A stretch of DNA of 29,431 nucleotides from contig JAYWIR010000081.1 of assembly GCA_036172245.1 (NCBI GenBank), forward strand, positions 310,001 to 339,431, given 5' to 3'. The position numbers and the translations under genes were made by a program. Positions 1 to 28,821 of the stretch are shown here, one piece after another. Each line of letters begins with the position of its first letter. The stretch's first letter is position 1. The notes beneath the pieces were generated by a model. The model was given only the letters and a program-made list of their open reading frames with translations. It was not told where the DNA came from and searched no databases. The stretch comes from Raillietiella orientalis. Taxonomy: Eukaryota.

Positions 1-500
1 GACGGATCAGCGTCGCGAACGACGACTACCACGCTGATCTCGGATTCGCTGGCGGGATCAGCGTTGCGACCGCCGACCGTCGCGCGGATCTCCGAATCTC
101 GGGCGAGATCAGCGCAGCGGATGCCTACCGCCGCGCTGATCCAGCAAACCTCGGACAGATCAGCGCAGCGGATGCCTACCGCCGCGCTGATCCAGCAAAC
201 CTCGGACAGATCAGCGCAGCGGATGCCTACCGCCGCGCTGATTCAGCAAACCTCGGACAGATCAGCGCCGCGACCGCCGAACGACGCGCTGATCTTGGAT
301 TCTTGGGCGAGATCAGCGCCGCGATCGCGGTCGGCAGCGCTGATCTGCAAGGGAAGCGGCGGATCAGCGCTGCGAACAGCCACTAGGCGCTGAACTTGGT
401 AAGCCGAGCGGCATCAGCGCCGCGGATGACGAACGCTTCGCTGATCCATGGCACTACGGACGGATCAGCGCCGCGAACGGCGACCGTCGCGCTCATCTAG
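1..500. repeat. Array A (partial): 51-bp phased inverted-motif array GCGCTGATC/GATCAGCGC
   Basis: GATC cores start at 5, 36, 56, 87, 107, 138, 158, 189, 209, 240, 260, 291, 311, 342, 362, (392), (412), 443, 463, (494), i.e. alternating 31/20 bp with alternating motif orientation. Confidence 0.97.
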
Positions 501-652
501 GATTAAAAAATGTAATCAGAAATAGCATCCTCTTCGAAAGCTTTGACCTTAAACCACCAAGCTTTATGCGCAGCTGCACTCCTAATGGCGCTCAGAAGTG
601 AAAGGATTATAGGGAGAATAGCAGAGAAATTCAAAAGAATTACGTAAGATAC

Positions 653-1684
653 ATGAAGATGGCTACCTTACGTGTGCCCTCTTCCTCATTCGGAAAACAA
701 ACCACTCCTTTCAGTTCTTGTACTCATTCAGGCGTTGTGTGCAAGAAATGTTTTCTCATTCGAATATTCGAAGAAACGAATCCATCTCTTTGCCGCACAT
801 GTCCTCTCAAGAAACGATGCCAGTAGCAGCTAGGCAGTTAATCCCAAATATTTGATGTCCTGCATATAATCCATTCCATTCAAGAGATCACACAATCAAG
901 ACAAGAAAGATCCTTCCGGTAAGAAAGCATTGATTTGTCTTGTGACTTCAACGCAATAGGATGGCACACCATTCATTTGTTTACGCAATTACGAGTTTAC
1001 ACTCAGGTGTTAACAAAAATGTGCGATTCTTTCTCTGCATTAATGTACTCTGATCGATATAATTGTCTCTGGTCGTGCCGGGAAGCTGTCAGAATTCTTA
1101 TTTATAGACTCATCCGTACAAGAGAGAAGCATGCCTCACGTACTATCCAACTTTGCGGTAGTGCTGTGTGTCGCTGTCAATAGAAGAGGATATAGAAAAG
1201 TATAAAACGGCTCATTTCAAGGTGGTTATTGTTTCAAAGTGTGAATGTTACGATGATGCTTTGAACTTCGGTATGATTAACGTTTGAAGTGATTACGGAA
1301 AAGTTTTTCTTTTTAATCGCCAGGGAATAGCACTTAGCAGGAAAGAAAGGCAGAATTCGAAAGTAGTCTACTCATTTATCCGATTCATCAGAGTTTCTTT
1401 CAACGATAATTTAATTGAAATCCTGGAAAATTTACCAGTCAAAGGAAATTAATTATACGTGTTCTAAAGTATAACTGCTTTCGATTGCGCAATGACATTT
1501 CGAAAAATTCACTTTTGTTAGTATGAATCGGCAAAAAAGCAGCTAATTTCTTTTTTTTTGTTACAAAGGCGAATGTCCTCTTGACGCATTGCGGATTTCG
1601 AGGATGTCATTATCGCGAAGTAGCACGAATATGCTTTTCATTTTAGGCAGACTCTGCAAAGGAAACGTAACTAATGAATGTTGA
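653..1684 (+). pseudogene. Stop-interrupted frame ORF1 with N-terminal RING-like Cys/His motif (pseudogene, or gene in a stop-reassigned code); copy 1 has small frameshifts at ~1139 and ~1555
   Basis: ATG at 653 gives MKMATLRVPSSSFGKQTTPFSSCTHSGVVCKKCFLIRIFEETNPSLCRTCPLKKRCQ. The frame continues through TAG 824, TAA 839 and TAA 920 into the supplied ORF 935..1183. Confidence 0.5.
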
Positions 1685-1782
1685 GGCGCAAGGAAATAAG
1701 AAGTAGGTTGATGGTTGGAAAATAACAGTTTCTAATTTGAGCATATCCTGTGATGTAGGGAGATAATTTCCTTTTTAATAAA

Positions 1783-1830
1783 CTTTCTTTCTTTCTTTTC
1801 ATTTTTTCTTTTTTTCTTTCTTTTCTTTTC
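1783..1830. repeat. (CTTT/CTTTT)n polypyrimidine tract (also ~9493-9540, ~17161-17208, ~24746-24783)
   Basis: Directly visible; length and sequence vary between copies. Confidence 0.85.
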
Positions 1831-2004
1831 ATTATAATATACACTGCAATTACAACTTTGCATAATAAGTAGTTGTGTTATGGTCTCTGCATATGCTGCT
1901 CTAAAGCTGCATATCTATAAGGGATTTCATCAATAGCGTGAATCGAAATATGAAATTACAAAACCGAACGTCAAGTGTAGTTTCGAGAGTAATATCACAG
2001 TTGA

Positions 2005-2598
2005 AAGCCTAAAACGAACTGGAAAGGCGAGTTGGTCCATTCCTTGCTCTATCGTGAAGATATTGAAAACGCTTTAGTAAGATGTGCTGGCGAAGGAAAA
2101 TTTTGGTGTAAGACTGATGTAGCAAGTTGTCTACTGGGTTGGTTATTTCGTATGCCAAGAATCGACATCTCCAAACGAAAATAAGTTGCAAACTGCAAAC
2201 AGCGTAATTTTCTCAGGTTCCTTTCATTGTTATGAGATTCTGGGAATTGCAAGTACAAGTAGAAAATACTAAGATGCAGTCGGTCTTCGGTAGCAGTCAC
2301 ATACAATCAAGAGCTTGTAGCATGTGTTGTGTTCAGATGGATGTACACGAATGTAGAGTTCATCGTAACAAAAAGATATAGATTTTTCAGGCGAAAGGAT
2401 TGGAACTCTGCAATATTTTCCGATGGAGTCCAAAACATAATACGCATTCAAAATTGTGTCCTTGAAAATGTGTACAGTTGTACACTGAGGTTATCTATAC
2501 TGCTATTTCTGCTGCATGAACATGATAGCCATGCAACTTTGAATTCAACGCTTTTGTTTATACAAGCTCAAAGAACTAAAATTGTAACGAATTTTTAA
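2005..2598 (+). pseudogene. Stop-interrupted frame ORF2, unknown product (copy 4: 24958-25563)
   Basis: ~197 codons in the frame of supplied ORF 2329..2598 with only three internal stops (TAA 2182, TGA 2233, TAG 2260); reads KPKTNWKGELVHSLLYREDIENALVRC... No start codon or homology recognised. Confidence 0.35.
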
Positions 2599-2650
2599 TA
2601 AATATTGTAACGAAATATTGTAACGAATTTTTAATTTTTAATAATTAAAA
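2581..2650. repeat. ATTGTAACGAA x3 micro-duplication (copies 1 and 2 only)
   Basis: Three copies here and at ~10287-10356; a single copy at ~17913 and ~25533. Confidence 0.9.
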
Positions 2651-2808
2651 AACATTACTCTAGCGAACAAAAATTTCCAACTTCATCAACTCCCAATAAA
2701 TGTATAACGCAGGCTCATATGATCACCGAACTTCTAGCACTTCGTATACCTAAAAGAGGCATACCATTTTGTCTGATCTGTTCAGATACCGCATTTATAT
2801 CTACTCGT

Positions 2809-3246
2809 TTTCTCACCATTCTCGCAATCTTTTTGCAATAATTCTTAAAATCACACCTTAATTTCGCTAAAATACTTCAACTTCCTTTGAATGTTGATTA
2901 GAACCAATAAAAAATGCACGCTGTCCGATTCGTCCATCCCACGTAATTTTTCCAGTCATGTTTTCCATTTTGGACAACGAATTAGCCATTAACCGTTTTT
3001 TCCACAACTACAACCTTCTCTTTTTTCCGCCTCATCCATTGCATTCAGATCATAAAGTCTGATGTTATTTTCTGGTTCCAAATCTAAACTTCCTACCCGA
3101 TCCATCTCATGAATACTCACATTCAATTGGCAAGACGCTGTTACTTTCGAGAAAACATCCATTGCGTGTCTAATGAATACAACATTGCCATTGATATGAA
3201 TCAGCATTATATTAAAAGTTTTACTCCAAGCCGATTGCGAAGCGAT
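2809..3246 (-). pseudogene. Stop-interrupted frame ORF3, unknown product (copy 4: ~25710-26147)
   Basis: Supplied ORF 2989..3207 continues in frame as *WLIRCPKWKT*LEKLRGMDESDSVHFLLVLINIQRKLKYFSEIKV*F*ELLQKDCENGEK. Copies 2 and 3 have a 1-nt deletion at the junction. Confidence 0.3.
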
Positions 3247-5187
3247 TCAACTTTACTTTATAAACTCACATAATCATTCACATAAAACATAAATCATGAA
3301 TATACCGCTTTCGATTTCTAATGCTTCCCTGTCAACAAAGCCATTCGACGTTTGCCAACTCTCCTCACTGGGACATCAACCTCAACTATGATATCCACGT
3401 TATCAACCCATCCATAAATCAATAAGGAATTTTGATTTCATAGAAAATCGTTTACAAGCATCATTCATCTGGAGCAAAGCATAACAAAATCAGTTAACAG
3501 ACATTTAACTCAATTAGAAATATTAACAATATTCTTCTTGACAATCGTTTCACTTACCACTACATACCATACCCGCACACATTTCTTTCACCCTTTATCT
3601 ACCATCTCGCAACCACACCAACACGCAGAAACCAATTCGCTTTTAGGAACCCTGCCATCAATTTCTAACCCATAATTATGATTATCACACCTACTCATCT
3701 TACAAACACTTCTAGAACACCTGCAAGGAATAAGAAAATAATTAGGCCTCCTATTCCTGAATATTTAATCGAAAAAAAAAAACCAATTCCTTAACCTGTT
3801 CAACTTTTTATCCACCTTCTTGCACTGCTTACATATTGGTCCCTATTAATGGAAGATAATTTATGATTCAACGAAGCACCCCCGAATATTCCAGTTGCTG
3901 CCACTATGAGTGCACCTAAAATCCGATACCCATAAACAACTGTTACTACAGCGGGAAACAAAAACCTCCACTTTACTACAACTTCCTATGTATACTACAC
4001 CATTCATGCCAATAAATAATCCTTTCAATAAGAAACTCCAAAGAAAGAAACGTCCACTTAGCCCATAAGTTTGAAATTCTAAATTTCACACAAAACCACA
4101 TTCACTCTTCGACTCATCCTTGAAATTCTATATCCAATACATAGCAATCATAGCTCCATAATTTCAACAAGAGTTTGCATAGAGAAATAGCTGAACATTA
4201 AGAAATACTACCTAATCTAATAAGAAATAATACTTAATGAACAAGAACATTCTTTTCAGAAAATAAATTTTTTACATCAAAGGTGACATCTTACTGTCAA
4301 TGAATTTCCAATTATCCAACATAACTGAAAAAGAAATAATCATTGCATGCCTTATCCACAATACTCTACTTTTACCTAAAAAAAACAATTTAAATGATTC
4401 CAATACTCCTGAGCTTATCATTGACAATTTTATTCATAATGAATTTCTTTCTACAACAAATCAGAAAATTCCAATCCCAACCATCACTTTCACCAACACC
4501 ACAACATATATCGAAACAGAGAAAAGTTGCCATGGTACCACCTATCGTTATTCCCTATAAACGATATGGGCATCAACACAAAAACATCATGATACTAACT
4601 ATTCCAGCTAAAACACACATGACAGAAACACAAAATATTTCCATTCTTCATGTGTAATTTATATCCACTGTTCTCATTCAATCCCTCAACATTACCTGTG
4701 AATATGGATTATAACAGCTAAATCCACTACAACAAACTTCACCACATTTTCTATTTGTATGTATATTTTAATTAAACCGAATAACTCTAGTTTTATAGAA
4801 GACATATAACCGAAAACTAAAATAATCATTTATGGTTGCATTCCACTACAGCTCAGTCGTATTCCAACCCTCAAATATATCGACCACTTCCCAACATTCG
4901 AAAGATTTAACATCTAAAAAATAGTATATCAGACGATTTATAACCGCAGGCTACCATCGACACACCCTATCGTAACCTCATCACCATCCTATATTCTTCC
5001 TCCTATTACAGCTCCCATATGACACATTGATGATTTAGACATGCTCCTTCTGCAATCCACTTGTTGACAAAATATCAACCCATTTCCTACAACATTCGAA
5101 AGACCCACGCTTATCGAAAATAACCTATCAGTTTAATACTAATCCTTCCCCAAAAAACACACCATTCCGCGGCGAAGAAAGTCCGCC

Positions 5188-5914
5188 GCGCTGATCCCGC
5201 CCGAAAGATCGCAGATCAGCGCGACGGGCGATCTCCGCGGCGCTGATCCCGGTCCCGAATCCGAGATCAGCGCGAAGGCAGTAGTCCGCCGCGCTGATCC
5301 CGGTCCCGCATCGGAGATCAGGGCGATGGCGGCAGTCCGCAGCGCTGATCCGTCGCGCCCCGCGGAGATCAGCGGGAAGGGCTAGAGTGCGCCGCGCTGA
5401 TCCTTCCTTCCAGGCCGAGATCAGCGCGTCGGCGGGTGTCCTCCGCGCTGATACTTCCCTCGAGGCCGAGATCAGCGCGACGGGCGATCTTCGCGGCGCT
5501 GATCCCGCTCTCGCATCGGAGATCAGCGCATCGGCGGGATTCCGCTGCGCTGATCCTTCCATCCAGGCCCAGATCAGCGCGACGTTGGGAGGCTGCCGCG
5601 CTGATCCCTTTCTCCACCCCGAGATCAGCGCGACGGCGGGAGTACGACGCGTTGATCGCTCCCTCCACGCGGGGATCAGCCCGACGGGCGAGCTCCGACG
5701 CGCTGATCCCTCCCTCCACGCGGGGATCAGCCCGACGGGCGAGCTCCGACGCGCTGATCCCTCCCTCCAAGCGGGGATCAGCGCGGCAGGTGCTTTCTCC
5801 GGCCTGGATGCCGTCTTTCCTCGCGAGATGGGAGCCACCCAAGGCGTGCGCAGCGCTGATCCCTCGCTGCAACTCGGAAATCAGCGCCGCGCGGGGCATT
5901 CCTTCGCGCTGATC
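5188..5914. repeat. Array B, copy 1: ~14 x 51-bp phased inverted-motif units
   Basis: GATC cores at 5193, 5214, 5245, 5265, 5296, 5316, 5347, 5367, 5399, 5419, 5450, 5470, 5501, 5521, 5552, 5572, 5603, 5623, 5654, 5674, 5705, 5725, 5756, 5776, then one degenerate unit, then 5858, ~5878, 5911. Confidence 0.97.
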
Positions 5915-6275
5915 GCGTTGCACGCGTCCCTGACAGCCTCCGGGTGACGCCGGAAGGCTTCCCCGAGGTTCCGCAGGAACCAAATGCCTTCCGCGAGACA
6001 CGCAACCTTCTCCTTGTACTCACGGGGGGGTTGGCGACGGCCTTCCGGGGGGATACGCTTCACCTGCTCCACCCGACCGAGCTCCCGAGTTGCGGGGCCT
6101 CAATTCCTGCTCCGCCTCCTCCTCGATCCCTCACCACGCGTCGCTCCAAGGCGGGAGGGCGGGCGGCCGGGCGGGATGGAGGAGGAGGTTCCAGGCGAGA
6201 GATTCGAGCGAAGCGGGACGCAATTCCCCCTCGTAAGAGGAGATTTCGCGTTTCCAGTCGTGGAAACGCGAAAAG
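5915..6275. other. GC-rich non-repetitive tail of array B with hairpins and G-quadruplex motif (also ~13547-13895, ~21150-21500, ~28822-29170)
   Basis: CGGAAGGC (5951-5958) pairs with GCCTTCCG (5986-5993) and encloses GGTTCC-GCA-GGAACC. 6115-6130 pairs with 6173-6188 (15/16). Five GGG tracts lie at 6153-6175. Function unknown. Confidence 0.7.
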
Positions 6276-6718
6276 TCAGTTAAAGGCAGTTAATACAAAA
6301 TAAGCAAATGATATTGTAGTACCCAAATTAAATATTCTCGTATACAGTTTAGGGCTCTATCACACATTGCTTCCTACGCATTCCCACCATCAATACTTAG
6401 TCTCCCCTTATAGTTCCTTTCACTTCATTCTCGTATACTTCATTTGATTCTTTCACAAAAGGTAATGTATTTATTATCCTAATGCTGTTCCTCTGTATTC
6501 TTTTCAGTACCTTTCGCTTTTCTGAAAAAAAAAATTAAGTTTCTTTGAATTTCAAACGATAGATTACAGAATTAGATAGTCACAACTGCTGCTATACCCA
6601 TGATGTCGCGACTTATCGAACTTCACAAGAAAGCAACCCGCGATTTGTATTCAAACTTTATTTCGTTCAATTTTCCATTCTCTAATACTTGTGCAATAGA
6701 ATTTATTTTCCATTTCAA

Positions 6719-6795
6719 ATTGCTGATATTGAAATTGCTGATAATTGCTGATATTGAAATTTCTGATAATTGCTGATATAATGTAATTGCTGATA
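6719..6795. repeat. ATTGCTGATA x6 minisatellite (also 14341-14417; single motif in copy 3 at 21943)
   Basis: Motifs start at 6719, 6734, 6744, 6759 (variant), 6769 and 6786. Confidence 0.92.
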
Positions 6796-7640
6796 TACAT
6801 TCCACTTAATACATTGTAGGTAACACATTATTCTTTTTTATGGTGCACTTTACTTTTTAATAAAGGAATCTACGAGATGCAAACATTCAAAAACACATTT
6901 TTTCGTGGATGATAATTTATGAAGCAAACTTCCCTAACAACATTCATTAGCACCGATTCGTACAAGCCTTAAATTACTAGCCCAAAGCTTTTTTCCTCAA
7001 AAGTACATAGCAAACATTGCTTTTTGAATACCAAACCAGAAGCCTGCATTCCAAGTTGATATAACATATATACTACTAGCTCATGTACCACTAGAGTTTC
7101 AAACTGCATAATAATAATTTTTGATAATCGCCAATTCAAAGTGTTTTTCCACGTAAAATGCAATACTGTATCGGCAATTCAAAGATTCATATATACCTAA
7201 TTATTATGATATAAACCAGTTTCCAACTAAAAATCATTTAGAAGAACTTTCGGCGCAGTACCATCCCAAATTTATTACAAATATCTATGGAATACCAAAA
7301 TTTATTTAAAAAAGTTTTCTCTTTTCATGCTTAGAAAATATTTCTTCAAGTATACCTTTTGATTAAAGAGAAAATTTTCTTCATAGTTTCTTTTTTTTTC
7401 TACAATTTTACAAGCTTCTTTCACTATATACATTCAAAGTAATATACCATAGACTGAAAATAAATAAATGTTATAACTATCAATTTGGATTGAATATAAA
7501 TGATGATGTATCCGAATTCCGCTTTCTAGATTTAATATTGATATTGCATTTAAAATCAGGTATAAAACTCTTCTTTCATTAAAGCAAATTATTGAGGTAT
7601 GTCAATGTTTGTTTGTTTCATAATATAATCTGCATCCTCG

Positions 7641-7683
7641 TATATATGCATATATATAGAAATACATTCATATATATGCATAT
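7641..7683. repeat. Duplicated palindromic TATATATGCATAT(ATA) tract just outside array A
   Basis: TATATGCATATA is self-complementary; TATATGCATAT occurs twice here and in copies 2 and 3. Confidence 0.7.
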
Positions 7684-7770
7684 CCGAAACGACGAACCTT
7701 TATCAGCGGGAACGACGCATTCTGCTGCGCGAATCTTCAAATTCGACCACGTATCAATGTGACAATCGTA

Positions 7771-8216
7771 GCGCTGATTGCGGATTAGCGCCGCTATCCA
7801 GGTCGGCCGCGCTGATCTGCAAGTGAAGGATCAGCGTCATGAACGACGACTTCTGCTGATCTCGGATTCGCTGGCGGGATCAGCGCTGCGACCGCCGACC
7901 GTCGCGGGGATCTCCGATCCTCAGGCGAGATCGGCACAGCGGTGCCTACCGCCGCGCTGATCCAGCAAACCTCGAACAGATCCAGCGCCGCAGCCGCCGA
8001 CGCGCTGATCTTGGATTTTTGGGCGAGATCAGCGCCGCGACCGCGGTCGGCAGCGCTGATCTGCAAGGGAAGCGGCGGATCAGCGCTGCGAACAGCCACT
8101 GGGCGCTGAACTTGGTAAGACGAGCGGCATCAGCGCCGCGGATGACGAACGCCCCGCAGATCCATGGCACTACGGACGGATCAGCGCCGCGAACGGCGAC
8201 CGTCGCGCTCATCTAG
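7771..8216. repeat. Array A, copy 1 (degenerate lead-in from ~7686)
   Basis: Same motifs and spacers as 1-500; several small deletions at 7826-8000 disturb the phase. Confidence 0.95.
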
Positions 8217-8368
8217 GATTAAAAAATGTAATCAGAAATAGCATCCTCTTCGAAAGCTTTGACCTTAAACCACCAAGCTTTATGCGCAGCTGCACTCCTA
8301 ATGGCGCTCAGAAGTGAAAGGATTATAGGGAGAATAGCAGAGAAATTCCAAAGAATTACGTAAGATAC

Positions 8369-9394
8369 ATGAAGATGGCTACCTTACGTGTGCCCTCTAT
8401 CTCATTCGGAACACAAACCACTCCTTTAAGTTCTTGTACTCATTCAGGCGTTGTGTGGAAGAAATGTTTTCTCATTCGAATATTCGAAGAAACGAATTGC
8501 AGACGTTGCCGCACATACCAAGAAAGACCCCACGTAGCAGCTAGGCAGTTGCCACCGCGTCCCTCCTAGGACATATATAATCCATTCCATTTCAAGAGAT
8601 CACACAATCAAGACAAGAAAGATCCTTCCAGTAAGAAAGCATTGATTTGTCTTGTGACTTCAACGCAATGGATGGCACACCATTCATTTGTTTACGCAAT
8701 TCACGAGTTTACACTCAGGTGTTAACAAAAATGTGCGATTCTTTCTCTGCATTAATACTTTGATCGATATAATTGTCTCTGGTCGTGCCGTTCAACTGTC
8801 AGAGAATTCTTATTTCTAGACTCATCCGTACAAGAGAAGCATGCCTCAAGGTACTATCCAACTTTGCGGTAGTGCTGTGTGTCGCTGTCAATAGAAGAGG
8901 ATATAGAAAAGTATAAAAGGGCTCATTTCAAGGTGGTTATTGTTTCAAAGTGTGAATGTTACGATGATGCTTTGAACTTCGGTATGATTAACGTTTGAAG
9001 TGATTACGGAAAAGTTTTTCTTTTTAATCGCCAGGGAATAGCACTTAGCAGGAAAGAAAGGCAGAATTCGAAAGTAGTCTACTCATTTATCCGATTCATC
9101 AGAGTTTCATTCAACGATAATGTAATTGAAATCCTGGAAAATTGACGAGTCGAAGGAAATTAATTATACGTGTTCTAAAGTATAACTGCTTTCGATTGCG
9201 CAATGACATTTCGAAAAATTCACTTTTGTTAGTATGAATCGGCTAAAAAGCAGCTAATTTCTTTTTTTTGTTACAAAGGCGAATGTCCTCTTGACGCATT
9301 GCGGATTTCGAGGAAGTCATTATCGCGAAGTAGCACGAATATCCTTTTCATTTTAGACAGGCTCTGCAAAGGAAACGTAACTAATGAATGTTGA
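8369..9394 (+). pseudogene. ORF1 remnant, copy 2 (multiple indels)
   Basis: Homologous to 653-1684; garbled at ~8498-8573 and ~8690-8835. Confidence 0.4.
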
Positions 9395-12300
9395 GGCGCA
9401 AGGAAATAAGAAGTAGGTTGATGGTTGGAAAATAACAGTTTCTAAATTGAGCATATCCTGTGATGTAGGGAGATAATTTCCTTTTTAATAAACTTTCTTT
9501 CTTTCTTTTCTTTTTTTCTTTCTTTCTTTCTTTTGTTTTCATTATAATATACACTGCAATGACAACTTTGCATAATAAGTAGTTGTGTTATGGTCTCTGC
9601 ATATGCTGCTCTAAAGCTGCATATCTATAAGGGATTTCATCAATAGCGTGAATCGAAATATGAAATTACAAAACCGAACAATCAAGTGTAGTTTCGAGAG
9701 TAATATCACAGTTGAAAGCCTAAAACGAACTGGAAGGCGGAGTTGGTCCATTCCTTGCTCTATCGTGAAGATGTGAAAACGCTCTAGTAGATCTTGGCGA
9801 AAGGAAATTTTTGGTGTAAGACTGATTAACCATTGTCTACTGGGTTGGTTATTGCGTATGCCAAGAATCGACATCTCCAAACGAAAATAATTTGCAAAGA
9901 GCAAACAGCGTAATTTTCTGAGGTTCCTTTCATTGTTGTGAGATTCTGGGAATTGCAAGTACAAGTGAAAAATACTAAGATGCAGTCGGTCTTCGGTAGC
10001 AGTCACATACAGTCAAGAGCTTGTAGCGTGTGTTGTGTTCAGATGGATGTACACGAATGTAGAGTTCATCGTAACAAAAAGATATAGATTTTTCAGGCGA
10101 AAGGATTGGAACTCTGCAATATTTTCCGATGGAGTCCAAAACATAATACGCATTCAAAATTGTGTCCTTGAAAATGTGTACAGTTGTACACTGAGGTTAT
10201 CTATACTGCTATTTCTGCTGCATGAACATGATAGCCATGCAACTTTGAATTCAACGCTTTTGTTTATACAAGCTCAAAGAACTAAAATTGTAACGAATTT
10301 TTAATAAATATTGTAACGAAATATTGTAACGAATTTTTAATTTTTAATAATTAAAAAACATTACTCTAGCGAACAAAAATTTCCAACTTCATCAACTACC
10401 AATAAATGTATAACGCAGGCTCATATGATCACCGAACTTCTAGCACTTCGTATACCTAAAAGAGGCATACCATTTTGTCTGATCTGTTCAGATACCGCAT
10501 TTATATCTACTCGTTTTCTCACCATTCTCGCAATCTTTTTGCAATAATTCTTAAACTCACACCTTAATTTCGCAAAAATACTTCAACTTCCTTCGAATGT
10601 TGATTAGAACCAATAAAAAATCCACGCTGTCCGATTCGTCCATCCCACGTAATTTTTCCAGTCATGTTTTCCATTTTGTACAACGAATTAGCCATTAACC
10701 TTTTTTCCACAACTACAACCTTCTCTTTTTTCCGCCTCATCCATTGCATTCAGATCATAAAGTCTGATGTTATTTTCTGGTTTCAAATCTAAACTTCCTA
10801 CCCGATCCATCTCATGAATACTCACATTCAATTGGCAAGACGCTGTTACTTTCGAGGAAACATCCATTGCGTGTCTAATGATTACAACATTGCCATTGAT
10901 ATGAATCAGCATTATATTATAAGTTTTACTCCAAGCCGATTGCGAAGCGATTCAACTTTACTTTATAAACTCACATAATCATTCACATAAAACATAAATC
11001 ATGAATATACCGCTATCGATTTCTAATGCTTCCCTGTCAACAAAGCCATTCGACGTTTGCAAACTCTCCTCACTGGGACATCAACCTCAACTATGATATC
11101 CACGTTATCAACCCATCCATACATCAATAAGGAATTTTGATTTCATAGAAAATCGTTTACAAGCATCATTCATCTGGAGCAAAGCATAACAAAATCAGTT
11201 ATCAGATATTTAACTCAATTAGAAATATTAACAATATTCTTCTTGACAATCGTTTCACTTACCACTACATACCATACCCGCACACATTTCTTTCACCCTT
11301 TATCTACCATCTCGCAACCACACCAACACGCAGAAACCAATTCGCTTTTAGGAACCCAGTCATCAATTTCTAACCCATAATTATGGTTATCACACCTACT
11401 CATCTTACAAACACTTCTAGAACACCTGCAAGGAATAAGAAAATAATTAGGCCTCCTATTCCTGAATATTTAATCGAAAAAAAAAAACCAATTCCTTAAC
11501 CTGTTCAACTTTTTATCCACCTTCTTGCACTGCTTACATATTGGTCCCTATGAATGGAACATAATTTATGATTCAACGAAGCACCCCCGAATATTCCAGT
11601 TGCTGCCACTATGAGTGCACCTAAAATCCGATACCCATAAACAACTGTTACTACAGCGGGAAACAAAAACCTCCACTTTACTACAACTTCCTATGTATAC
11701 TACACCATTCATGCCAATAAATAAACCTTTCAATAAGAAACTCCAAAGAAAGAAACGTCCACTTAGCCCATAAGTTTGAAATTCTAAATTTCACACAAAA
11801 CCACATTCACTCTTCGACTCATCCTTGAAATTCTATATCCAATACATAGCAATCATAGCTCCATAATTTCAACAAGAGTTTGCATAGAGAAATAGCTGAA
11901 CATTAAGAAATACTACCTAATCTAATAAGAAATAATACTTAATGAACAAGAACATTCTTTTCAGAAAATAAATTTTTTACATCAAAGGTGACATCTTACT
12001 GTCAATGAATTTCCAATTATCCAACATAACTGAAAAAGAAATAATCATTGCATGCCTTATCCACAATACTCTACTTTTACCTAAAAAAAACAATTTAAAT
12101 CATTCCAATACTCCTAAGCTTATCATTGACAATTTTATTCATAATGAATTTCTTTCTACAACAAATCAGAAAATTCCAATCCCAACCATCACTTTCACCA
12201 ACACCACAACATATATCGAAACAGAGAAAAGTTGCCAAGGTACCACCTATCGTTATTCCCTATAAACGATATGGGCATCAACACAAAAACATCATGATAC

Positions 12301-12897
12301 TAACTATTCCAGCTAAAACACACATGACAGAAACACAAAATATTTCCATTCTTCATGTGTAATTTATATCCACTGTTCTCATTCAATCCCTCAACATTAC
12401 CTGTGAATATGGATTATAACAGCTAAATCCACTACAACAAACTTCACCACATTTTCTATTTGTATGTATATTGTAATTACACCGAATAACTCTAGTTTTA
12501 TAGAAGACATATAACCGAAAACTAAAATCATCATTTATGGTTGCATTCCACTACAGCTCAGTCGTATTCCAACCCTCAAATATATCGACCACTTCCCAAC
12601 ATTCGAAAGATTTAACATCTAAAAAATAGTATATCAGACGATTTATAACCATGAGCTACCATCATCAAAACACACCCTATCGTACCCTCATCACCATCCT
12701 ATATTCTTCCTAGTATTATAGCTCCCATATGACACATTGATGATTTAGACATGCTCCTTCTGCAATCCACTTGTTGACAAAATATCAACCCATTTCCTAC
12801 AACATTCGAAAGACCGACGCTTATCGAAAATAACCTATCAGTATAATACTAATCCTTCCCCAAAAAACACATTATTCCGCAGCGAAGAAAGTCCGCC

Positions 12898-13546
12898 GCG
12901 CTGATCCCGCCCGAAAGATCGCAGATCAGCGCGACGGGCGATCTCCGCGGCGCTGATCCCGGTCCCGAATCTGAGATCAGCGCGAAGGCAGTAGTCCGCC
13001 GCGCTGATCCCGGTCCCGCATCGGAGATCAGGGCGATGGCGGCAGTCCGCAGCGCTGATCCGTCGCGCCCCGCGGAGATCAGCGCGACGGGCTAGAGTGC
13101 GCCGCGATGATCCTTCCTTTAAGGCCGAGATCAGCGCGTCGGCGGGTGTCCCCCGCGCTGATACTTCCCTCGAGGCCGAGATCAGCGCGACGGGCGATCT
13201 TCGCGGCGCTGATCCCGCTCTCGCATCGGAGATCAGCGCATCGGCAGGATTCCGCCGCGCTGATCCTTCCCTCCAGGCCCAGATCAGCGCGACGGCGGGA
13301 GGCTGCCGCGCTGATCCCTTTCTCCACCCCGAGATCAGCGCGACGGCGGGAGTCCGCCGCGCTGATCCCTTTCTCCACCCCGAGATCAGCGCGACGGCGG
13401 CAGTACGACGCGTTGATCCCTCCCTCCAGCAAGGTCTGGATGCCGTCTTTCCTCGCGAGATGGAGCCACCCAAGGCCTGCGCGGCGCTGATCCCTCCGCT
13501 GCAACTCAGAAATCAGCGCCACGCGGGGCATTCCTTCGCGCTGATC
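12898..13546. repeat. Array B, copy 2
   Basis: Same grammar; CCTTTCTCCACCCCGA unit duplicated and distal units deleted relative to copy 1. Confidence 0.96.
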
Positions 13547-15421
13547 GCGTTGCACGCATCTGACAACCTCCGGGTGACGCCGGAAGGCTTCCCCCGAGGT
13601 TCCGCAGGAACCAAATGCCTTCCGCGAGACACGCAACCTTCTCCTTGTACTCACGGGGGGGTTGGCGACGGCCTTCCGGGGGGATACGCTTCACCTCCTC
13701 CACCCGAACGAGCTCCCGGTCTGCGGGGCCTCAATTCCTGCTCCGCCTCCGCCTCGATCCCTCACCACGCGTCGCTCCAAGGCGGGAGGGCGGGCGGCCG
13801 GGCGGGATGGAGGAGGAGGTTCCAGGCGAGAGATTCGAGCGAAGCGGGACGCCCTTCCCCCTCGTAAGAGGAGATTTCGCGTTTCCGCGACCTGAGTCAG
13901 TTAAAGGCAGTTAATACAAAATAAGCAAATGATAGTGTAGTACCCAAATTAAATATTCTCGTATACAGTTTAGGGCTCTCTCACACATTGCTTCCTACGC
14001 ATTCCCACTATCAATACTTAGACTCCCCTTATAGTTCCTTTCACCTCATTCTCGTATACTTCATTTGATTCTTTCACAAAAGGTAATGTATTTATTATCC
14101 TAATGCTGTTCCTCTGTATTCTTTTCAGTACCTTTCGCTTTTCTGAAAAAAAAAAATTAAGTTTCTTTGAATTTCAAACGATAGATTACAGAATTAGATA
14201 GTCACAACTGCTGCTATACCCATGATGTCGCGACTTATCGAACTTCACAAGAAAGCAACCCGCGATTTGTATTCAAACTTTATTTCGTTCAATTTTCCAT
14301 TCTCTAATACTTGTGCAATAGAATTTATTTTCCATTTCAAATTGCTGATATTGAAATTGCTGATAATTGCTGATATTGAAATTTCTGATAATTGCTGATA
14401 TAATGTAATTGCTGATATACATTCCACTTAATACATTGTAGGTAACACATTATTCTTTTTTATGGTGCAACTTTGAATTTCTATGGATTAGGAACATTAA
14501 GTACTTTTTAATAAAGGAATCTACGAGATGCAAACATTCAAAAACACATTTTTTCGTGGATGATAATTTATGAAGCAAACTTCCCTAACAACATTCATTA
14601 GCACCGATTCGTACAAGCCTTAAATTACTAGCCCAAAGCTTTTTTCCTCAAAAGTACATAGCAAACATTGCTTTTTGAATACCAAACCAGAAGCCTGCAT
14701 TCCAAGTTGATATAACATATATACTACTAGCTCATGTACCACTAGAGTTTCAAACTGCATAATAATAATTTTTGATAATCGCCAATTCAAAGTGTTTTTC
14801 CACGTAAAATGCAATACTGTATAGGCAATTCAAAGATTCATATATACCTAATTATTGTGATATAAACCAGCTTCCAACTAAAAATCATTAAGAAGAACTT
14901 TCGGCGCAGTACCATCCCAAATTTATTACAAATATCTATGGAATACCAAAATTTATTTAAAAAAGTTTTCTCTTTTCATCCTTAGAAAATATTTCTTCAA
15001 GTATACCTTTTGATTAAAGAGAAAATTTTCTTCATAGTTTCTTTTTATTTCTACAATTTTACAAGCTTCTTTCACTATATACATTCAAAGTAATATACCA
15101 TAGACTGAAAATAAATAAATGTTATAACTATCAATTTGGATTGAATATAAATGATGATGTATCCGAATTCCGCTTTCTAGATTTAATATTGATATTGCAT
15201 TTAAAATCAGGTATAAAACTCTTCTTTCATTAAAGCAAATTATTGAGGTATGTCAATGTTTGTTTGTTTCATAATATAATCTGCATCCTCGTATATATGC
15301 ATATATATAGAAATACATTCATATATATGCATATCCGAAACGACGAACCTTTATCAGCGGGAACGACGCATTCTGCTGCGCGACTCTTCAGATTCGACCA
15401 CGTATCAACGTGACAATCGTA

Positions 15422-15878
15422 GCGCTGATTGCGGATTAGCGCCGCTATCCAGGTCGGCCGCGCTGATCTGCAAGTGAAGCGACGGATCAGCGTCGCGAAC
15501 GACGACTACCACGCTGATCTCGGATTCGCTGGCGGGATCAGCGTTGCGACCGCCGACCGTCGCGCGGATCTCCGAATCTCGGGCGAGATCAGCGCAGCGG
15601 ATGCCTACCGCCGCGCTGATCCAGCAAACCTCGGACTGATCAGCGCCGCGACCGCCGACCGACGCGCTGATCTTGGATTCTTGGGCGAGATCAGCGCCGC
15701 GACCGCGGTCGGCAGCGCTGATCTGCAAGGGAAGCGGCGGATCAGCGCTGCGAACAGCCACTGGGCGCTGAACTTGGTAAGCCGAGCGGCATCAGCGCCG
15801 CGGATGACGAACGCCCCGCAGATCCATGGCACTACGGACGGATCAGCGCCGCGAACGGCGACCGTCGCGCTCATCTAG
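15422..15878. repeat. Array A, copy 2
   Basis: Same motifs and spacers; a single CAGCAAACCTCGGAC unit. Confidence 0.96.
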
Positions 15879-16030
15879 GATTAAAAAATGTAATCAGAAA
15901 GAGCATCCTCTTAGAAAGCTTTGACCTTAAACCACCAAGCTTTATGCGCAGCTGCACTCCTAATGGCGCTCAGAAGTGAAAGGATTATAGGGAGAATAGC
16001 AGAGAAAATCAAAAGCATTACGTAAGATAC

Positions 16031-17062
16031 ATGAAGATGGCTACCTTACGTGTGCCCTCTTGCTCATTCGGAACACAAACCACTCCTTTAAGTTCTTGTA
16101 CTCATTCAGGCGTTGTGTGCAAGAAATGTTTTCTCATTCGAATATTCGAAGAAACGAATCCGTCTCTTTGCCGCACATGTCCACCCAAGAAACGATGCCA
16201 GTAGCAGCTAGGCAGTTAATCCCAAATATTTGATGTCCTGCATATAATCCATTCCATTCAAGAGATCACACAATCAAGACAAGAAAGATCCTTCCGGTAA
16301 GAAAGCATTGATTTGTCTTGTGACTTCAACGCAATAGGATGACACACCATTCATTTGTTTACGCAATTACGAGTTTACACTCAGGTGTTAACAAAAATGT
16401 GCGATTCTTTCTCTGCATTAATGTACTTTGATCGATATAATTGTCTCTGGTCGTGCCGAGAAGCTGTCAGAATTCTTATTTATAGACTCATCCGTACAAG
16501 AGAGAAGCATGCCTCAAGGTACTATCCAACTTTGCGGTAGTGCTGTGTGTCGCTGTCAATAGAAGAGGATATAGAAAAGTATAAAAGGGCTCATTTCAAG
16601 GTGGTTATTGTTTCAAAGTGTGAATGTTACGATGATGCTTTGAACTTCGGTAGGATTAACGTCTGAAGTGATTACGGAAAAGTTTTCCTTCTTAATCGCC
16701 AGGGAATAGCACTTAGCAGGAAAGAAAGCCAGAATTCGAAAGTAGTCTACTCATTTATCCGATTTATCAGAGTTTCATTCAACGATAATGTAATTGAAAT
16801 CCTGGAAAATTGACGAGTCGAAAAAAATTAATTATACGTGTTCTAAAGTATAACTGCTTTCGATTGCGCAATGACATTTCGAAAAATTCACTTTTGTTAG
16901 TATGAATCGGCAAAAAAGCAGCTAATTTCTTATTTTTGTTACAAAGGCGAATGTCCTCTTGAGGCATTGCGGATTTCGAGGAAGTCATTATCGCGAAGTA
17001 GCACGAATATGCTTTTCATTTTAGACAGACTCTGCAAAGGAAACGTAACTAATGAATGTTGA
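16031..17062 (+). pseudogene. ORF1, copy 3: 343-codon unshifted frame with 10 internal stop triplets and an intact C-x-H-x4-C-x2-C-x13-C-x2-C motif
   Basis: Read by hand in one frame from ATG 16031 to TGA 17060; it includes supplied ORF 16355..16540 and several stop-free runs of 40-65 codons. Confidence 0.5.
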
Positions 17063-20000
17063 GGCGCAAGGAAATAAGATGTAGGTTGATGGTTAGAAAA
17101 TAACAGTTTCTAAATTGAGCATATCCTGTGATGTAGGGAGATAATTTCCTTTTTAATAAACTTTGTTTCTTTCTTTAATTTTTTTCTTTTTTTCTTTCTT
17201 TTCTTTTCATTATAATATACACTGCAATGACAACTTTGCATAATAAGTAGTTGTGTTATGGTCTCTGCATATGCTGCTCTAAAGCTGCATATCTATAAGG
17301 GATTTCATCAATAGCGTGAATCGAAATATGAAATTACAAAAGCGAACGTCAAGTGTAGTTTCGAGAGTAATATCACAGTTGAAAGCCTTCATTCATTCGA
17401 GAAAATGAATCCCATTCCTTCTCTGTCCCCTAACTATTCCACTTTAATAGATATTTTGTATAAAAATTTTAGTGTCAGACTGATGTATAAAGTTATCTAC
17501 TAGTTTATTGTTGTGTACAAATGGTATCTCCAAACGAAAATAATTTGGCTACAACAGCAATTTTCTCAGTTCACTGTTGTTATATCATAAGTCGCTTTGG
17601 GGGGCAGGCACTTTCACAACTTTGCTCGTTAAACAAGCGGACGTAACTTGATGACTCCCTGTATATGTTGTTGATGAATGCTCCATTCATTTCATCGTAA
17701 CAAAAAGATATAGATTTTTCAGGCGAAAGGATTGGAACTCTGCAATATTTTCCGATGGAGTCCAAAACATAATACGCATTCAAAATTGTGTCCTTGAAAA
17801 TGTGTACAGTTGTACACTGAGGTTATCTATACTGCTATTTCTGCTGCATGAACATGATAGCCATGCAACTTTGAATTCAACGCTTTTGTTTATACAAGCT
17901 CAAAGAACTAAAATTGTAACGAAAATAAAAACATTACTCTAGCAAACAAAAATTTCCAACTTCATCAACTACCAATAAATGTATAACTCAGGCTCATATG
18001 ATCACCGAACTTCTAGCACTTCGTATACCTAAACAGAGGCATACCATTTTGTCTCATCTGTTCAGATACCGCATTTATATCTACTCGTTTTCTCACCATT
18101 CTCGCAATCTTTTTGCAATAATTCTTAAAATCACACCTTAATTTCGCTAAAATACTTCAACTTCCTTTGAATGTTGATTAGAACCAATAAAAAATGCACG
18201 CTGTCCGATTCGTCCATCCCACGTAATTTTTCCAGTCATGTTTTCCATTTTGGACAACGAATTAGCCATTAACCTTTTTTCCACAACTACAACCTTTTTT
18301 TTTTTCCGCCTCATCCATTGCATTCAGATCATAAAGTCTGATGTTATTTTCTGGTTCCAAATCTAAACTTCCTACCCGATCCATCTCATGAATACTCACA
18401 TTCAATTGGCAAGACGCTGTTACTTTCGAGGAAACATCCATTGCGTGTCTAATGATTACAACATTGCCATTGATATGAATCAGCATTATATTATAAGTTT
18501 TACTCCAAGCCGATTGCGAAGCGATTCAACTTTACTTTATAAACTCACATAATCATTCACATAAAACATAAATCATGAATATACCGCTATCGATTTCTAA
18601 TGTTTCCCTGTCAACAAAGCCATTCGACGTTTCCAAACTCTCCTCACTGGAACATCAAACTCAACTATGATATCCACGTTATCAACCCATCCATACATCA
18701 ACAAGGAATTTTGATTTCATAGAAAATCCTTTACAAGCATCATTCATCTGGAGCAAAGCATAACAAAATCAGTCATCAGATATTTAACTCAATTAGAAAC
18801 ATTAACAATATTCTTCTTGACAATCGTTCCACTTACCACTACATACCATACCCGTACACATTTCTTTCACCCTTTATCTACCATCTAGCAACCACACCAA
18901 CACGCAGAAACCAATTCGCTTTTAGGAACCCTGCCATCAATTTCTAACCCATAATTATGATTATCACACCTACTCATCTTACAAACACTTCTAGAACACC
19001 TGCAAGGAATAAGAAAATAATTAGGCCTCCTATTCCTGAATATTTAATCGAAAAAAAAAAACCAATTCCTTAACCTGTTCAACTTTTTATCCACCTTCTT
19101 GCACTGCTTACATATTGGTCCCTATTAATGGAAGATAATTTATGATTCAACGAAGCACCCCCGAATATTCCAGTGTCTGCCACTATGAGTGCACCTAAAA
19201 TCCGATACCCACAAACAACTGTTACTACAGCGGGAAACAAAAACCTCCACTTTACTACAACTTCCCATGTATACTACACCATTCATGCCAATAAATAAAC
19301 CTTTCAATAAGAAACTCCAGAGAAAGAAACGTCCACTTAGCGCATAAGTTTGAAATTCTAAATTTCACACAAAACCACATTCACTCTTCGACTCATCCTT
19401 GAAATTCTATATCCAATACATAGCAATCATAGCTCCATAATTTCAACAAGAGTTTGCATAGAGAAATAGCTGAACATTAAGAAATACTACCTAATCTAAT
19501 AAGAAATAATACGTAATGAACAAGAACATTCTTTTCAGAAAATAAATTTTTTACATCAAACGTGACATGTTACTGTCAATGAATTTCCAATTATCCAACA
19601 TAACTGAAAAAGAAATAATCATTGCATGCCTTATCCACAATACTCCACTTTTACGTAAAAAAAACAATTTAAATCATTCCAATACTCCTAAGCTTATCAT
19701 TGACAATTTTATTCATAATGAATTTCTTTCTACAACAAATCAGAAAATTCCAATCCCAACCATCACTTTCACCAACACCACAACATATATCGAAACAGAG
19801 AAAAGTTGCCAAGGTACCACCTATCGTTATTCCCTATAAACAATATGGGCATCAACACAAAAACATCATGACACTAACTATTCCAGCTAAAACACACATG
19901 ACAGAAACACAAAAATTTTCCATTCTTCATGTGTAATTTATATCCACTGTTCTCATTCAATCCCTCAACATAACCTGTGAATATGGATTATAACAGCTAA

Positions 20001-20473
20001 ATCCACTACAACAAACTTCACCACATTTTCTATTTGTATGTATATTGTAATTACACCGAATAACTCTAGTTTTATAGAAGACATATAACCGAAAACTAAA
20101 ATCATCATTTATGGTTGCATTCCACTACAGCTCAGTCGTATTCCAACCCTCAAATATATCGACCACTTCCCAACATTCGAAAGATTTAACATCTAAAAAA
20201 TAGTATATCAGACGATTTATAACCATGAGAGCTACCATCATCAAAACACACCCTATCGTACCCTCATCACCATCCTATATTCTTCCTCCTATTACAGCTC
20301 CCATATGACACATTGATGATTTAGACATGCTCCTTCTGCAATCCACTTGTTGACAAAATATCAACCCATTTCCTACAACATTCGAAAGACCCACGCTTAT
20401 CGAAAATAACCTATCAGTTTAATACTAATCCTTCCCCAAAAAACACATAATTCCGCAGCGAAGAAAGTCCGCC

Positions 20474-21149
20474 GCGCTGATCCCGCCCGAAAGATCGCAG
20501 ATCATCGCGACGGGCGATCTCCGCGGCGCTGATCCCGGTCCCGAATCCGAGATCAGCGCGAAGGCAGTAGTCCGCCGCGCTGATCCCGGTCCCGCATCGG
20601 AGATCAGGGCGATGGCGGCAGTCCGCAGCGCTGATCCGTCGCGCCCCGCGGAGATCAGCGCGACGGGCTAGAGTGCGCCGCGCTGATCCTTCCTTCCAGG
20701 CCGAGATCAGCGCGTCGGCGGGTGTCCCCCGCGCTGATACTTCCCTCGAGGCCGAGATCAGCGCGACGGGCGATCTTCGCGGCGCTGATCCCGCTCTCGC
20801 ATCGGAGATCAGCGCATCGGCAGGATTCCGCCGCGCTGATCCTTCCCTCGAGGCCCAGATCAGCGCGACGTCGGGAGTCCGCCGCGCTGATCCCTTTCTC
20901 CATCCCGAGATCAGCGCGACGGCGGGAGTACGACGCGTTGATCGCTCCCTCCACGCGGGGATCAGCCCGACGGGCGACCTCCGACGCGCTGATCCCTCCC
21001 TCCAAGCGGGGATCAGCGCGGCAGGTGCTTTCTCCGGCCTGGATGCCGTCTTTCCTCGCGAGATGGGAGCCACCCAAGGCGTGCGTAGCGCTGATCCCTC
21101 GCTGCAACTCGGAAATCAGCGCCGCGCGGGGCATTCCTTCGCGCTGATC
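20474..21149. repeat. Array B, copy 3
   Basis: Same grammar; 51 bp shorter than copies 1 and 4. Confidence 0.96.
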
Positions 21150-22953: not shown

Positions 22954-23461
22954 GCGCTGATTGCGGATTAGCGCCGCTATCCAGGTCGGCCGCGCTGATC
23001 TGCAAGTGAAGCGACGGATCAGCGTCGCGAACGACGACCACCACGCTGATCTCGGATTCGCTGGCGGGATCAGCGCTGCGACCGCCGACCGTCGCGCGGA
23101 TCAACGAATCTCGGGCGAGATCAGCGCAGCGGATGCCTACCGCCCCGCTGATCCAGCAAACCTCGGACAGATCAGCGCAGCGGATGCCTACCGCCGCGCT
23201 GATCCAGCAAACCTCGGACTGATCAGCGCCGCGACCGCCGACCGACGCGCTGATCTTGGATTCTTGGGCGAGATCAGCGCCGCGACCGCGGTCGGCAGCG
23301 CTGATCTGGAAGGGAAGCGGCGGATCAGCGCTGCGAACATCCACTGGGCGCTGAACTTGGTAAGCCGAGCGGCATCAGCGCCGCGGATGACGAACGCCCC
23401 GCTGATCCATGGCACTACAGACGGATCAGCGCCGCGAACGGCGACCGTCGCGCTCATCTAG
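22954..23461. repeat. Array A, copy 3
   Basis: Same motifs and spacers; two CAGCAAACCTCGGAC units. Confidence 0.96.
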
Positions 23462-23613
23462 GATTGAAAAAGGTAATCAGAAAGAGCATCCTCTTCGTAA
23501 GCTTTGACCTTAAACCACCAAGCTTGATGCGCAGCTGCACTCCTAATGGCGCTCAGAAGTGAAAGGATTATAGGGAGAATAGCAGAGAAATTCAAAAGAA
23601 TTACGTAAGATAC

Positions 23614-28094: not shown

Positions 28095-28821
28095 GCGCTG
28101 ATCCCGCCCGAAAGATCGCAGATCAGCGCGACGGGCGATCTCCGCGGCGCTGATCCCGGTCCCGAATCGGAGATCAGCGCGAAGGCAGTAGTCCGCCGCG
28201 CTGATCCCGGTCCCGCATCGGAGATCAGGGCGATGGCGGCAGTCCGCAGCGCTGATGCGTCGCGCCCGGCGGAGATCAGCGCGACGGGCTAGAGTGCGCC
28301 GCGCTGATCCTTCCTTCCAGGCCGAGATCAGCGCGTCGGCGGGTGTCCCCCGCGCTGATACTTCCCTCGAGGCCGAGATCAGCGCGACGGGCGATCTTCG
28401 CGGCGTTGATATCGCTCTCGCATCGGAAATCAGCGTATCGGCGGGATTCCGCCGCGCTGATCCTTCCATCCAGGCCCAGATCAGCGCGACGTTGGGAGGC
28501 TGCCGCGCTGATCCCTTTCGCCATCCCGATCTCAGCGCGACGGCGGGAGTCCGCCGCGCTGATCCCTTTCTCCACCCCGAGATCAGCGCGACGGCGGGAG
28601 TACGACGCGTTGATCGCTCCCTCCACGCGGGGATCAGCCCGACGGGCGACCTCCGACGCGCTGATCCCTCCCTCCAAGCGGGGATCAGCGCGGCAGGTAC
28701 TTTCTCCGGCCTGGATGCCGTCTTTCCTCGCGAGATGGGAGCCACCCAAGGCGTGCGTAGCGCTGATCCCTCGCTGCAACTCGGAAATCAGCGCCGCGCG
28801 GGGCATTCCTTCGCGCTGATC
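28095..28821. repeat. Array B, copy 4
   Basis: Same grammar; same length as copy 1 but a different unit is duplicated. Confidence 0.96.

Follow-up and report, generated by a model that had tools for sequence, protein, structure and literature searches.

The locus is, as judged from its sequence, a non-coding nested repeat: a macrosatellite unit of 7.6 kb that carries two minisatellite arrays in mirror image. The window, by which we mean the whole stretch of 29,431 nucleotides that was analyzed, contains about 3.8 head-to-tail copies of this non-coding macro-repeat of 7.6–7.7 kb, starting at positions 490, 8206, 15868 and 23451. The reading that we put first, tentatively and with a probability that falls somewhat short of even, is that of a box-bearing satellite, in which a sequence-specific protein, probably a dimer, would bind DNA at the boxes of the arrays, these putative sites being set out on a lattice of five helical turns. 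To judge from the comparison of repeat units, the boxes were clearly under sequence-specific constraint in former times; the binding mechanism proposed below is putative throughout.

A macro-repeat with nested arrays

Head-to-tail copies are the mark of a tandem satellite or macrosatellite with a nested minisatellite, and such copies are what we find. They are mostly 95–99% identical to one another in windows of 300 bp, with a few diverged patches. Each macro-unit contains one array A of 9–10 units and one array B of 13–14 units, and is ordered as a 4.7-kb AT-rich segment, array B, a 0.37-kb GC-rich unrepeated stretch, a 1.4-kb AT-rich segment and array A (Table 1). The GC content of the arrays is 63–69%, compared with 29–39% in the AT-rich segments. 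TRF reports the 51-bp arrays with 4–12 copies each, together with higher-order periods of 102 and 153 bp.

Table 1. Coordinates of the repeat units, arrays and intervening segments in the window
Feature	Position	Strand	Remarks
Macro-unit 1	490..8205	+	7716 bp
Macro-unit 2	8206-15867		7662 bp
Macro-unit 3	15868-23450		7583 bp
Macro-unit 4	23451-29431		Partial
Array A, clipped by the window start	1..497 (cores 5-497)	-	~10 units of 51 bp, reverse-complement to array B
AT-rich non-coding segment, 4.7 kb	498..5187	.	~32-36% GC
Array B of macro-unit 1	5188..5914	+	14 units of GCGCTGATC-N16-GATCAGCGC-N17
GC-rich stretch (65%), unrepeated	5915..6280	.	Extends array B; differs between copies
AT-rich segment, 1.4 kb	6281..7689	.	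Includes the ATTGCTGATA-type repeat cluster 6717-6795
Array A of macro-unit 1-2	7690..8213 (cores 7771-8213)	-	Degenerate units 7690-7830, canonical after; sharp end at 8213
Array B of macro-unit 2	12898..13546	+	
Array A between macro-units 2 and 3	15422..15875	-	
Array B of macro-unit 3	20474..21149	+	
Array A between macro-units 3 and 4	22954..23458	-	
Array B of macro-unit 4	28095..28821	+	
Diverged patch, macro-copy 3	~17390-17700		Aligns to 2040-2350 of copy 1
Diverged patch, macro-copy 2	~8510-8580		Aligns to 800-870

Insertions and deletions of 51 bp are found between macro-copies in arrays A and B alike, i.e., the number of whole units has changed. These differences indicate unequal exchange in register, and at the level of the DNA sequence they show that the arrays have grown and shrunk in steps of the 51-bp unit. 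We also considered the possibility that the tandem copies were an assembly artefact of a circle. This was ruled out, as the copies differ by structured patches and by unit indels.

Half of the words sampled from the window are present in a coded DNA sequencing run, the contigs of which match at 90–99% and do not span the arrays. Since these matching contigs carry variants of their own, the repeat is real and present in multiple copies. The absence of genes, the architecture of the repeat and the size of this run suggest a eukaryotic, most likely nuclear, origin. One short-read contig tracks positions 4834–5323 and then continues into 29 nt of AT-rich sequence that is not in the window. Its exit point at 5323 lies 2.6 units into array B, which suggests that there is, in a different context, a copy whose array B is truncated.

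The diverged patches are sharp-edged and ~65–70% identical to the other copies, and are set within sequence that is otherwise 97–99% identical. They look like the product of conversion, with a diverged macro-unit relative at another genomic site as the donor.

Alternating boxes at fixed spacing

Counting both strands, the window has 115 occurrences of the exact 9-mer GCGCTGATC, compared with an expectation of 0.24 given by the mean of 100 dinucleotide-preserving shuffles (maximum 1). On allowing up to one mismatch we find 90 cores in the plus and 83 in the minus orientation; 173/173 lie within the eight arrays, and the remainder of the window contains none. The orientation of the cores alternates almost perfectly over 165 neighboring pairs. 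Pooling the four macro-copies, which are not independent of one another, the distance from the start of a plus core to that of the next minus core is 25 (67 pairs), 26 (7) or 27 (1), giving a gap of N16, while that from minus to plus is 26 (63 pairs), 27 (8) or 25 (4), giving a gap of N17. In the same pooled counts the centers of the GATC sequences are separated by 20 (67), 21 (7), 31 (63), 30 (4) and 32 (8) bp.

An earlier, sequence-only reading of this DNA had described an alternating inverted array of 9-mers with gaps of N16 and N17, containing ~14 units in B and ~9–11 in A. The counts bear this out: the array is real, the two gaps are those observed, and there are 14 units in 5188–5914 and 9–10 in A. 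The division of the unit as 51 = 20 + 31 bp holds when it is measured at the GATC centers. A degenerate unit near 5807/5827 was said to keep the phase, and indeed this unit, at 5802–5852 in an array B that decays at its right end, is 51 nt long. The further proposal that all cores face one side of the helix holds for a chosen sub-site and not in general. The GCGC centers are also spaced by 31 and 20–21 bp, but are offset by 5 bp, i.e., half a turn, from the GATC centers; moreover 51 bp is 1.5 bp less than five turns of 10.5 bp, so that the phase drifts along the array.

Conservation of the boxes relative to the spacers

We aligned the 22 distinct units of one macro-copy, 14 from array B and 8 from array A (the latter reverse complemented), so that conservation here is that between paralogous units of a single locus. 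The mean pairwise identity was 0.92 for the plus core and 0.87 for the minus core, compared with 0.45 for spacer 1 and 0.49 for spacer 2. The alignment was anchored without the minus core, whose conservation therefore does not stem from the way in which the units were cut. This core is conserved above the spacers with p = 4e-6 (Mann-Whitney), and a short conserved box of this sort is characteristic of a satellite of the CENP-B-box type. Eighteen of the 22 units are exactly 51 bp in length, the others being 50, 52, 52 and 53 bp. The claim that cores and spacing are better kept than spacers is therefore upheld.

The spacers had also been called variable. At the identities given above they are so, but they are not free to vary; they form related families with a partly conserved inner palindrome, CGG...CCG. 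Conservation runs past both cores, symmetrically, as far as a CG that lies two to three bases out, and as a consequence of this symmetry spacer 2 contains an inner CGG...CCG pair around a variable center of 7 nt. The 51-bp unit consists of a GC-rich imperfect palindrome of 35 bp, GATCAGCGC-(GA)CGG-N7-CCG(CN)-GCGCTGATC, and a variable linker of 16 bp. Comparison of these paralogous units shows that the box sequence has stayed constant while the spacers were losing half of their identity. In our judgment this deep pattern demands either long-term constraint on the boxes or their biased propagation; selection on the boxes could be mimicked by biased turnover of units. A CRISPR array was considered and rejected, as the cores alternate in orientation and the spacers of 16–17 bp fall into related families.

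Is the constraint still seen between the recent macro-copies? In orthologous columns the cores have changed at 14/311 positions and the spacers at 38/614 (Fisher p = 0.36), in a test limited to clearly orthologous, gap-free blocks; misaligned non-orthologous units inflate the spacer differences, giving p = 0.007 when they are included. Each of the core changes (14/14) is a singleton that departs from the consensus; under neutrality about 19 would be expected. In this comparison of cores with spacers between recent macro-copies, ongoing constraint on the boxes is thus not detectable. Since the macro-unit was amplified, the mutation rate of the boxes is, on these counts, close to background, and per-site selection is apparently weak or lapsed in the recently amplified macro-copies.

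Inverted relationship of arrays A and B

Array A is the reverse complement of array B. In 4/4 copies of A the local alignment score is 91–125 in the inverted sense, compared with 53–80 in the direct sense. The inverted matches between A and B have 70–85% complementarity over 40–141 nt, the longest extending over 141 nt at 71%. The G/C composition of spacer 2 in the two arrays agrees only when one of them is inverted, and between A and B the cores are 0.90 identical and the spacers 0.42. The inverted arrays are separated by 1.85 and 4.7 kb, and their edges are mirror images, with abrupt ends at the 4.7-kb segment and degenerate units toward the 1.85-kb side. The grammar of the boxes is strand-symmetric, and thus the orientation of an array can be read only from its spacers and its edges.

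Pairing within the arrays

Folded as single-stranded DNA, the arrays lie well below shuffled sequences in energy, with z = −4.6 for array B and −7.2 for array A. Short inverted repeats that fold are a feature of satellites with dyad symmetry (non-B DNA), and those of the arrays do so. Each box could, on the earlier reading, pair with either of its neighbors to give two alternative cruciform registers. For the two as hairpins we calculate mean values of −12.3 and −12.1 kcal/mol per unit (with 5-nt flanks), and thus they are about isoenergetic at ~−12 kcal/mol each, which bears out the proposal of two registers.

Covariation is absent. The proportion of cells that are paired is 86.4%, compared with 86.1% in shuffles, a comparison of low power with cores that are near-invariant. 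The covariation score is 0.071 versus 0.068 in shuffles, 167/500 of which score as high, and so compensatory change is not evident by this measure either. Most departures within core pairs are left unpaired; there is one compensated change (2 rows, representing one event) against up to 8 unpaired per core pair. These uncompensated departures from pairing indicate that it is the sequence of the box that is conserved and not its structure, in a test that has little power given that the cores hardly vary. Mismatched cores left uncompensated likewise point to recognition of sequence rather than structure. The pairing data favor sequence-specific recognition of what we take to be putative protein-binding boxes.

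Coding potential, RNA and base composition

Open reading frames longer than ~130 amino acids are found only in the GC-rich arrays, where two frames per strand are open together. This result holds under 21/25 genetic-code tables, the exceptions being those that read TAA and/or TAG as sense. No Pfam family scored above its cut-off among 74 ORF pieces (65+9), and no protein homologue was found for the candidates of 129–413 amino acids. A coding tandem repeat should maintain its reading frame; here the frame shifts wherever a unit measures 50, 52 or 53 bp. The variability of the spacers shows no periodicity of three (0.69, 0.58 and 0.61 by phase). Rfam gave no match at the gathering score in the window, and at E ≤ 1 only a chance-level match to a miRNA (E = 0.9) outside the arrays. 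ARAGORN found no tRNA in the window.

A number of other origins were tried and rejected. A mitochondrial or other organellar source was suggested by a Proton_antipo_M match of a 47-amino acid piece, of the NADH-dehydrogenase type, which is weak (E = 0.005 and 16.5 bits, compared with a cut-off of 21.5, among 65 pieces). A frame of 148 amino acids that reads TGA as tryptophan, at 3318–3764 (-) on the G-rich strand, has stops in 2/4 copies and changes at all codon positions. Neither held up when the four copies were compared. There is no signature of RIP or of CpG decay, CpG being undepleted and the RIP indices normal.

The AT-rich segments have compositional features of their own. There is strong strand asymmetry in 2650–5180 and 6281–7700 and in the equivalent regions of the other units, where the plus strand contains 9–11% G and the GC skew is ~−0.45. 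In 2650–5180 A exceeds T; the skew switches abruptly at ~2640, and 500–2650 is balanced. The skewed regions yielded no remnant of coding sequence on the plus or the minus strand. A 13-bp tandem repeat, ATTGTAACGAAAT (x3.8), is located at the switch point (2581–2627), and there is a (CTTT)n tract at 1783–1829. A palindromic tract of TATATATGCA (x4), at 7641–7683, adjoins the degenerate edge of array A. In copy 1 a perfect hairpin with a 10-bp stem, CGCGTTTCCA / TGGAAACGCG, and a loop of 4 nt lies at 6248–6272, where the GC-rich sequence that follows array B gives way to AT-rich sequence; it is absent from macro-copy 2 and is thus probably incidental.

The GATC sequence, which occurs twice per 51 bp in the arrays, was seen 7 times outside them (498–5160 and 6281–7689), where 16 are expected from a second-order model (z ~−2.7). 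It is among the three lowest 4-mers there, a rank that is not significant given the number of words tested. At 6717–6795 (also at 14339–14417) ATTGCTGATA-type units form a small tandem cluster, AT-rich and with periods of 10, 15 and 25; ~67 bp of it are deleted in macro-copy 3. Within it the hexamer GCTGAT, the center of the array core, occurs five times, always in direct orientation. The only other GCTGAT sequences outside the arrays are one site per unit at ~3200 and those of the degenerate array edge. The hexamers of the cluster could be low-affinity sites for the same putative factor, or a coincidence.

Searches for related sequences

Searching viral contigs with a pattern of one palindrome returned 23 loci, each with a single pair of boxes and no array. 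A three-box pattern was found at two metagenome loci and one GTDB genome locus, all of them isolated in GC-rich bacterial DNA. Among 185,579 prokaryote genomes there was no array of boxes, and only one three-box site. On the chromosome of a Xylanimonas sp., locus 3001–3057 has three alternating 9-mers at a spacing of 24 bp, isolated and apparently between two reading frames; it has no visible relation to the arrays of the window. A blastn search of 5100–6300 against plasmids and phages gave no match. In the full-text literature, those papers among the matches listed for the two 9-mers appear unrelated by title, and the sequences are probably primers or constructs. Nothing relevant by title was found for a 51-bp repeat, and for a 7.6/7.7-kb repeat only a human tRNA repeat.

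Discussion

The mechanism that we propose for the box-bearing satellite is as follows. Each box, of ~13 bp including its flank (CG-Y-N-GCGCTGATC), would be the recognition site of a sequence-specific DNA-binding protein, which would probably sit on the palindrome as a dimer. The 51-bp period, being about five helical turns, may align neighboring complexes, allowing them to bind cooperatively and making of the array a platform of high avidity. The protein might be a chromatin factor of the host, or the transposase of a foldback-type element, and the arrays would expand and contract by unequal exchange. A more far-reaching version of this is that the arrays are a dedicated cis-acting platform, on which a dimeric protein reads the 13-bp boxes and polymerizes along the 51-bp lattice into a nucleoprotein filament. 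This would organize the macrosatellite for a function resembling that of a centromere or in pairing or partition, or for flip-flop recombination between the inverted arrays. We regard this stronger proposal as unlikely. Were it true, the arrays would be a eukaryotic counterpart of the bacterial BIME or the viral hr/FR elements, with a motif grammar that has not been described before.

Close to the box-satellite reading lies another, to which we would give perhaps one chance in a handful, that the locus is what remains of a DNA transposon of the foldback type. On this view an element of 3.0 kb (5188–8213) would have had the two arrays, B and A, as its internally repetitive TIRs and the boxes as its transposase sites; its amplification in tandem, together with 4.7 kb of flank, would have given the macro-repeat, and the immobilized boxes would since drift neutrally. 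The inversion of A relative to B in every copy, with inverted matches of up to 141 nt, is what such an element would leave, and the array edges are mirror-symmetric, with the sharp positions 5188 and 8213 as outer ends and the degenerate units inward. The arms differ in their number of units, as those of foldback elements do, and the near-neutral recent change in the cores fits a dead element, while the lack of ORFs, too, agrees with a remnant of this kind. The contig that leaves array B after 2.6 units for unrelated AT-rich sequence hints at another context. Passages in a paper on foldback elements (FB, Galileo and Tetris) describe TIRs of tandem repeats, an absence of ORFs and the seeding of satellite arrays, and in Galileo the TIR repeats are reported there to contain extra transposase-binding sites (PMC4079207). 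Against this reading, the 100-bp flanks of 5188–8213 share no direct repeat of at least 7 nt, which is a weak test as all the copies lie in one context. The flank windows of the alternative element share three direct 8-mers, none of which is placed symmetrically in the manner of a target-site duplication. The ends outside the arrays share one inverted 7-mer (5140 and 8215), at about the level of chance, and neither a transposase nor any other ORF is present. Typical subterminal clusters of binding sites are less regular than arrays of 18–27 perfectly periodic sites, which also argues against a transposon end.

Somewhat less probable again is a selfish minisatellite driven by structure, in which neither a specific protein nor a host function plays a part. 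Hairpins or cruciforms would stall replication, and slippage or template switching would favor the copying of units with intact arms, so that the boxes persist. The folding of the arrays well below shuffles and the near-equality of the two hairpin registers agree with this, as do the unit-sized indels, the higher-order periods of 102 and 153 bp and the lack of base-level protection of cores in the recent copies; dyad symmetries of <10 bp are, moreover, described as common in centromeric satellites in passages of two papers (PMC5889037; PMC13081366). The sequence-only reading had preferred a protein platform to a plain minisatellite in terms that were too strong, for the 51-bp indels, the 102/153-bp periods and the degenerate edges are how a minisatellite behaves. 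Yet pairing alone would allow the arms to covary, and covariation equals that of shuffles with one compensated change. A single box sequence is fixed in both arrays, and loops of 16–17 nt, or of 7 nt with a mismatched extension, would probably make cruciform extrusion costly to judge from the energetics of DNA. We think it improbable that the arrays are a source of hairpin or small RNA, in which array transcripts would fold serially and A–B transcripts would form long imperfect dsRNA that feeds silencing of the macrosatellite by an RNAi-type pathway. In keeping with such a source, hairpins are locally strong and the inverted arrays, 1.85 and 4.7 kb apart, are 70–85% complementary over 40–141 nt. 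But RNA structure tolerates covariation and none is seen, and no Rfam family was matched even at E ≤ 1 save the chance-level miRNA outside the arrays; that no RNA run is listed with the sequence is uninformative. Least credible by far is that the tandem unit encodes 17 amino acids (51 = 3 x 17). Open frames of 158–250 amino acids do run across the arrays on both strands, but two frames per strand are open together as the composition predicts, and units of 50, 52 and 53 bp break the frame. The spacers have no 3-periodicity, and neither a Pfam family above cut-off nor a homologue of the 129–413-amino acid candidates was found.

Returning to the box-bearing satellite, we can compare the arrays with repeats of known kinds. 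In alpha satellite the CENP-B box occurs once per one or two monomers of 171 bp. The arrays resemble this in having a short box that stays constant, at a fixed period, as the remainder of the repeat drifts; they are unlike it in having two inverted boxes per 51-bp unit. The BIME/REP sequences of bacteria form short arrays between genes. They share with the arrays palindromic units of alternating orientation, and linkers of two fixed lengths. However, the window contains no genes in 29.4 kb, and no arrays of the box were found in prokaryote genome contigs. The hr sequences of baculoviruses and the family of repeats of EBV oriP are tandem palindromic sites of fixed period that are bound by a dimeric protein, in gene-dense viral genomes. 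With their tandem palindromes, fixed period and less conserved linkers they may serve as a model of how the arrays could work, although the window has no ORFs and gave no match in phage or viral collections.

Centromeric satellites in general contain short dyad symmetries or protein boxes, according to parts of one paper (PMC5889037). The satellites of Tribolium are described, in sections of another, as having nested dyad symmetry in AT-rich monomers of ~110–700 bp that form megabase arrays; inverted repeats of <10 bp within the units and oppositely oriented arrays are common to these and to the present locus (PMC13081366). The window differs in its GC-rich 51-bp units and in arrays of 0.45–0.73 kb within a macro-unit, and no similarity between the two is on record. 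With FB, Galileo and Tetris, as they appear in passages of the work cited above, the locus shares inverted arms of tandem sub-repeats, unequal numbers of units and the absence of an ORF (PMC4079207). Unlike foldback elements, neither a target-site duplication nor a matching terminal domain was found in the window, and its unit, in which 9-bp boxes alternate, is palindromic in its own right, the whole structure being locked within a 7.6-kb tandem repeat. The locus is thus placed, by its apparent organization, with the known box or dyad satellites or with foldback-like repeats, and has an unusually tidy repeat grammar.

What the locus signifies depends on the boxes. If they are not binding sites, it is another GC-rich minisatellite in AT-rich repeat DNA. 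If they truly are, it provides a natural and clean case of palindromic sites arrayed in phase, whose sequence alone would reveal constraint on the boxes, constraint on the 51-bp spacing and drift of the spacers. A probe with which to capture the candidate protein is at hand in the 35-bp palindrome, and the locus bears on the mutual origin of foldback-like inverted arrays and macrosatellites.
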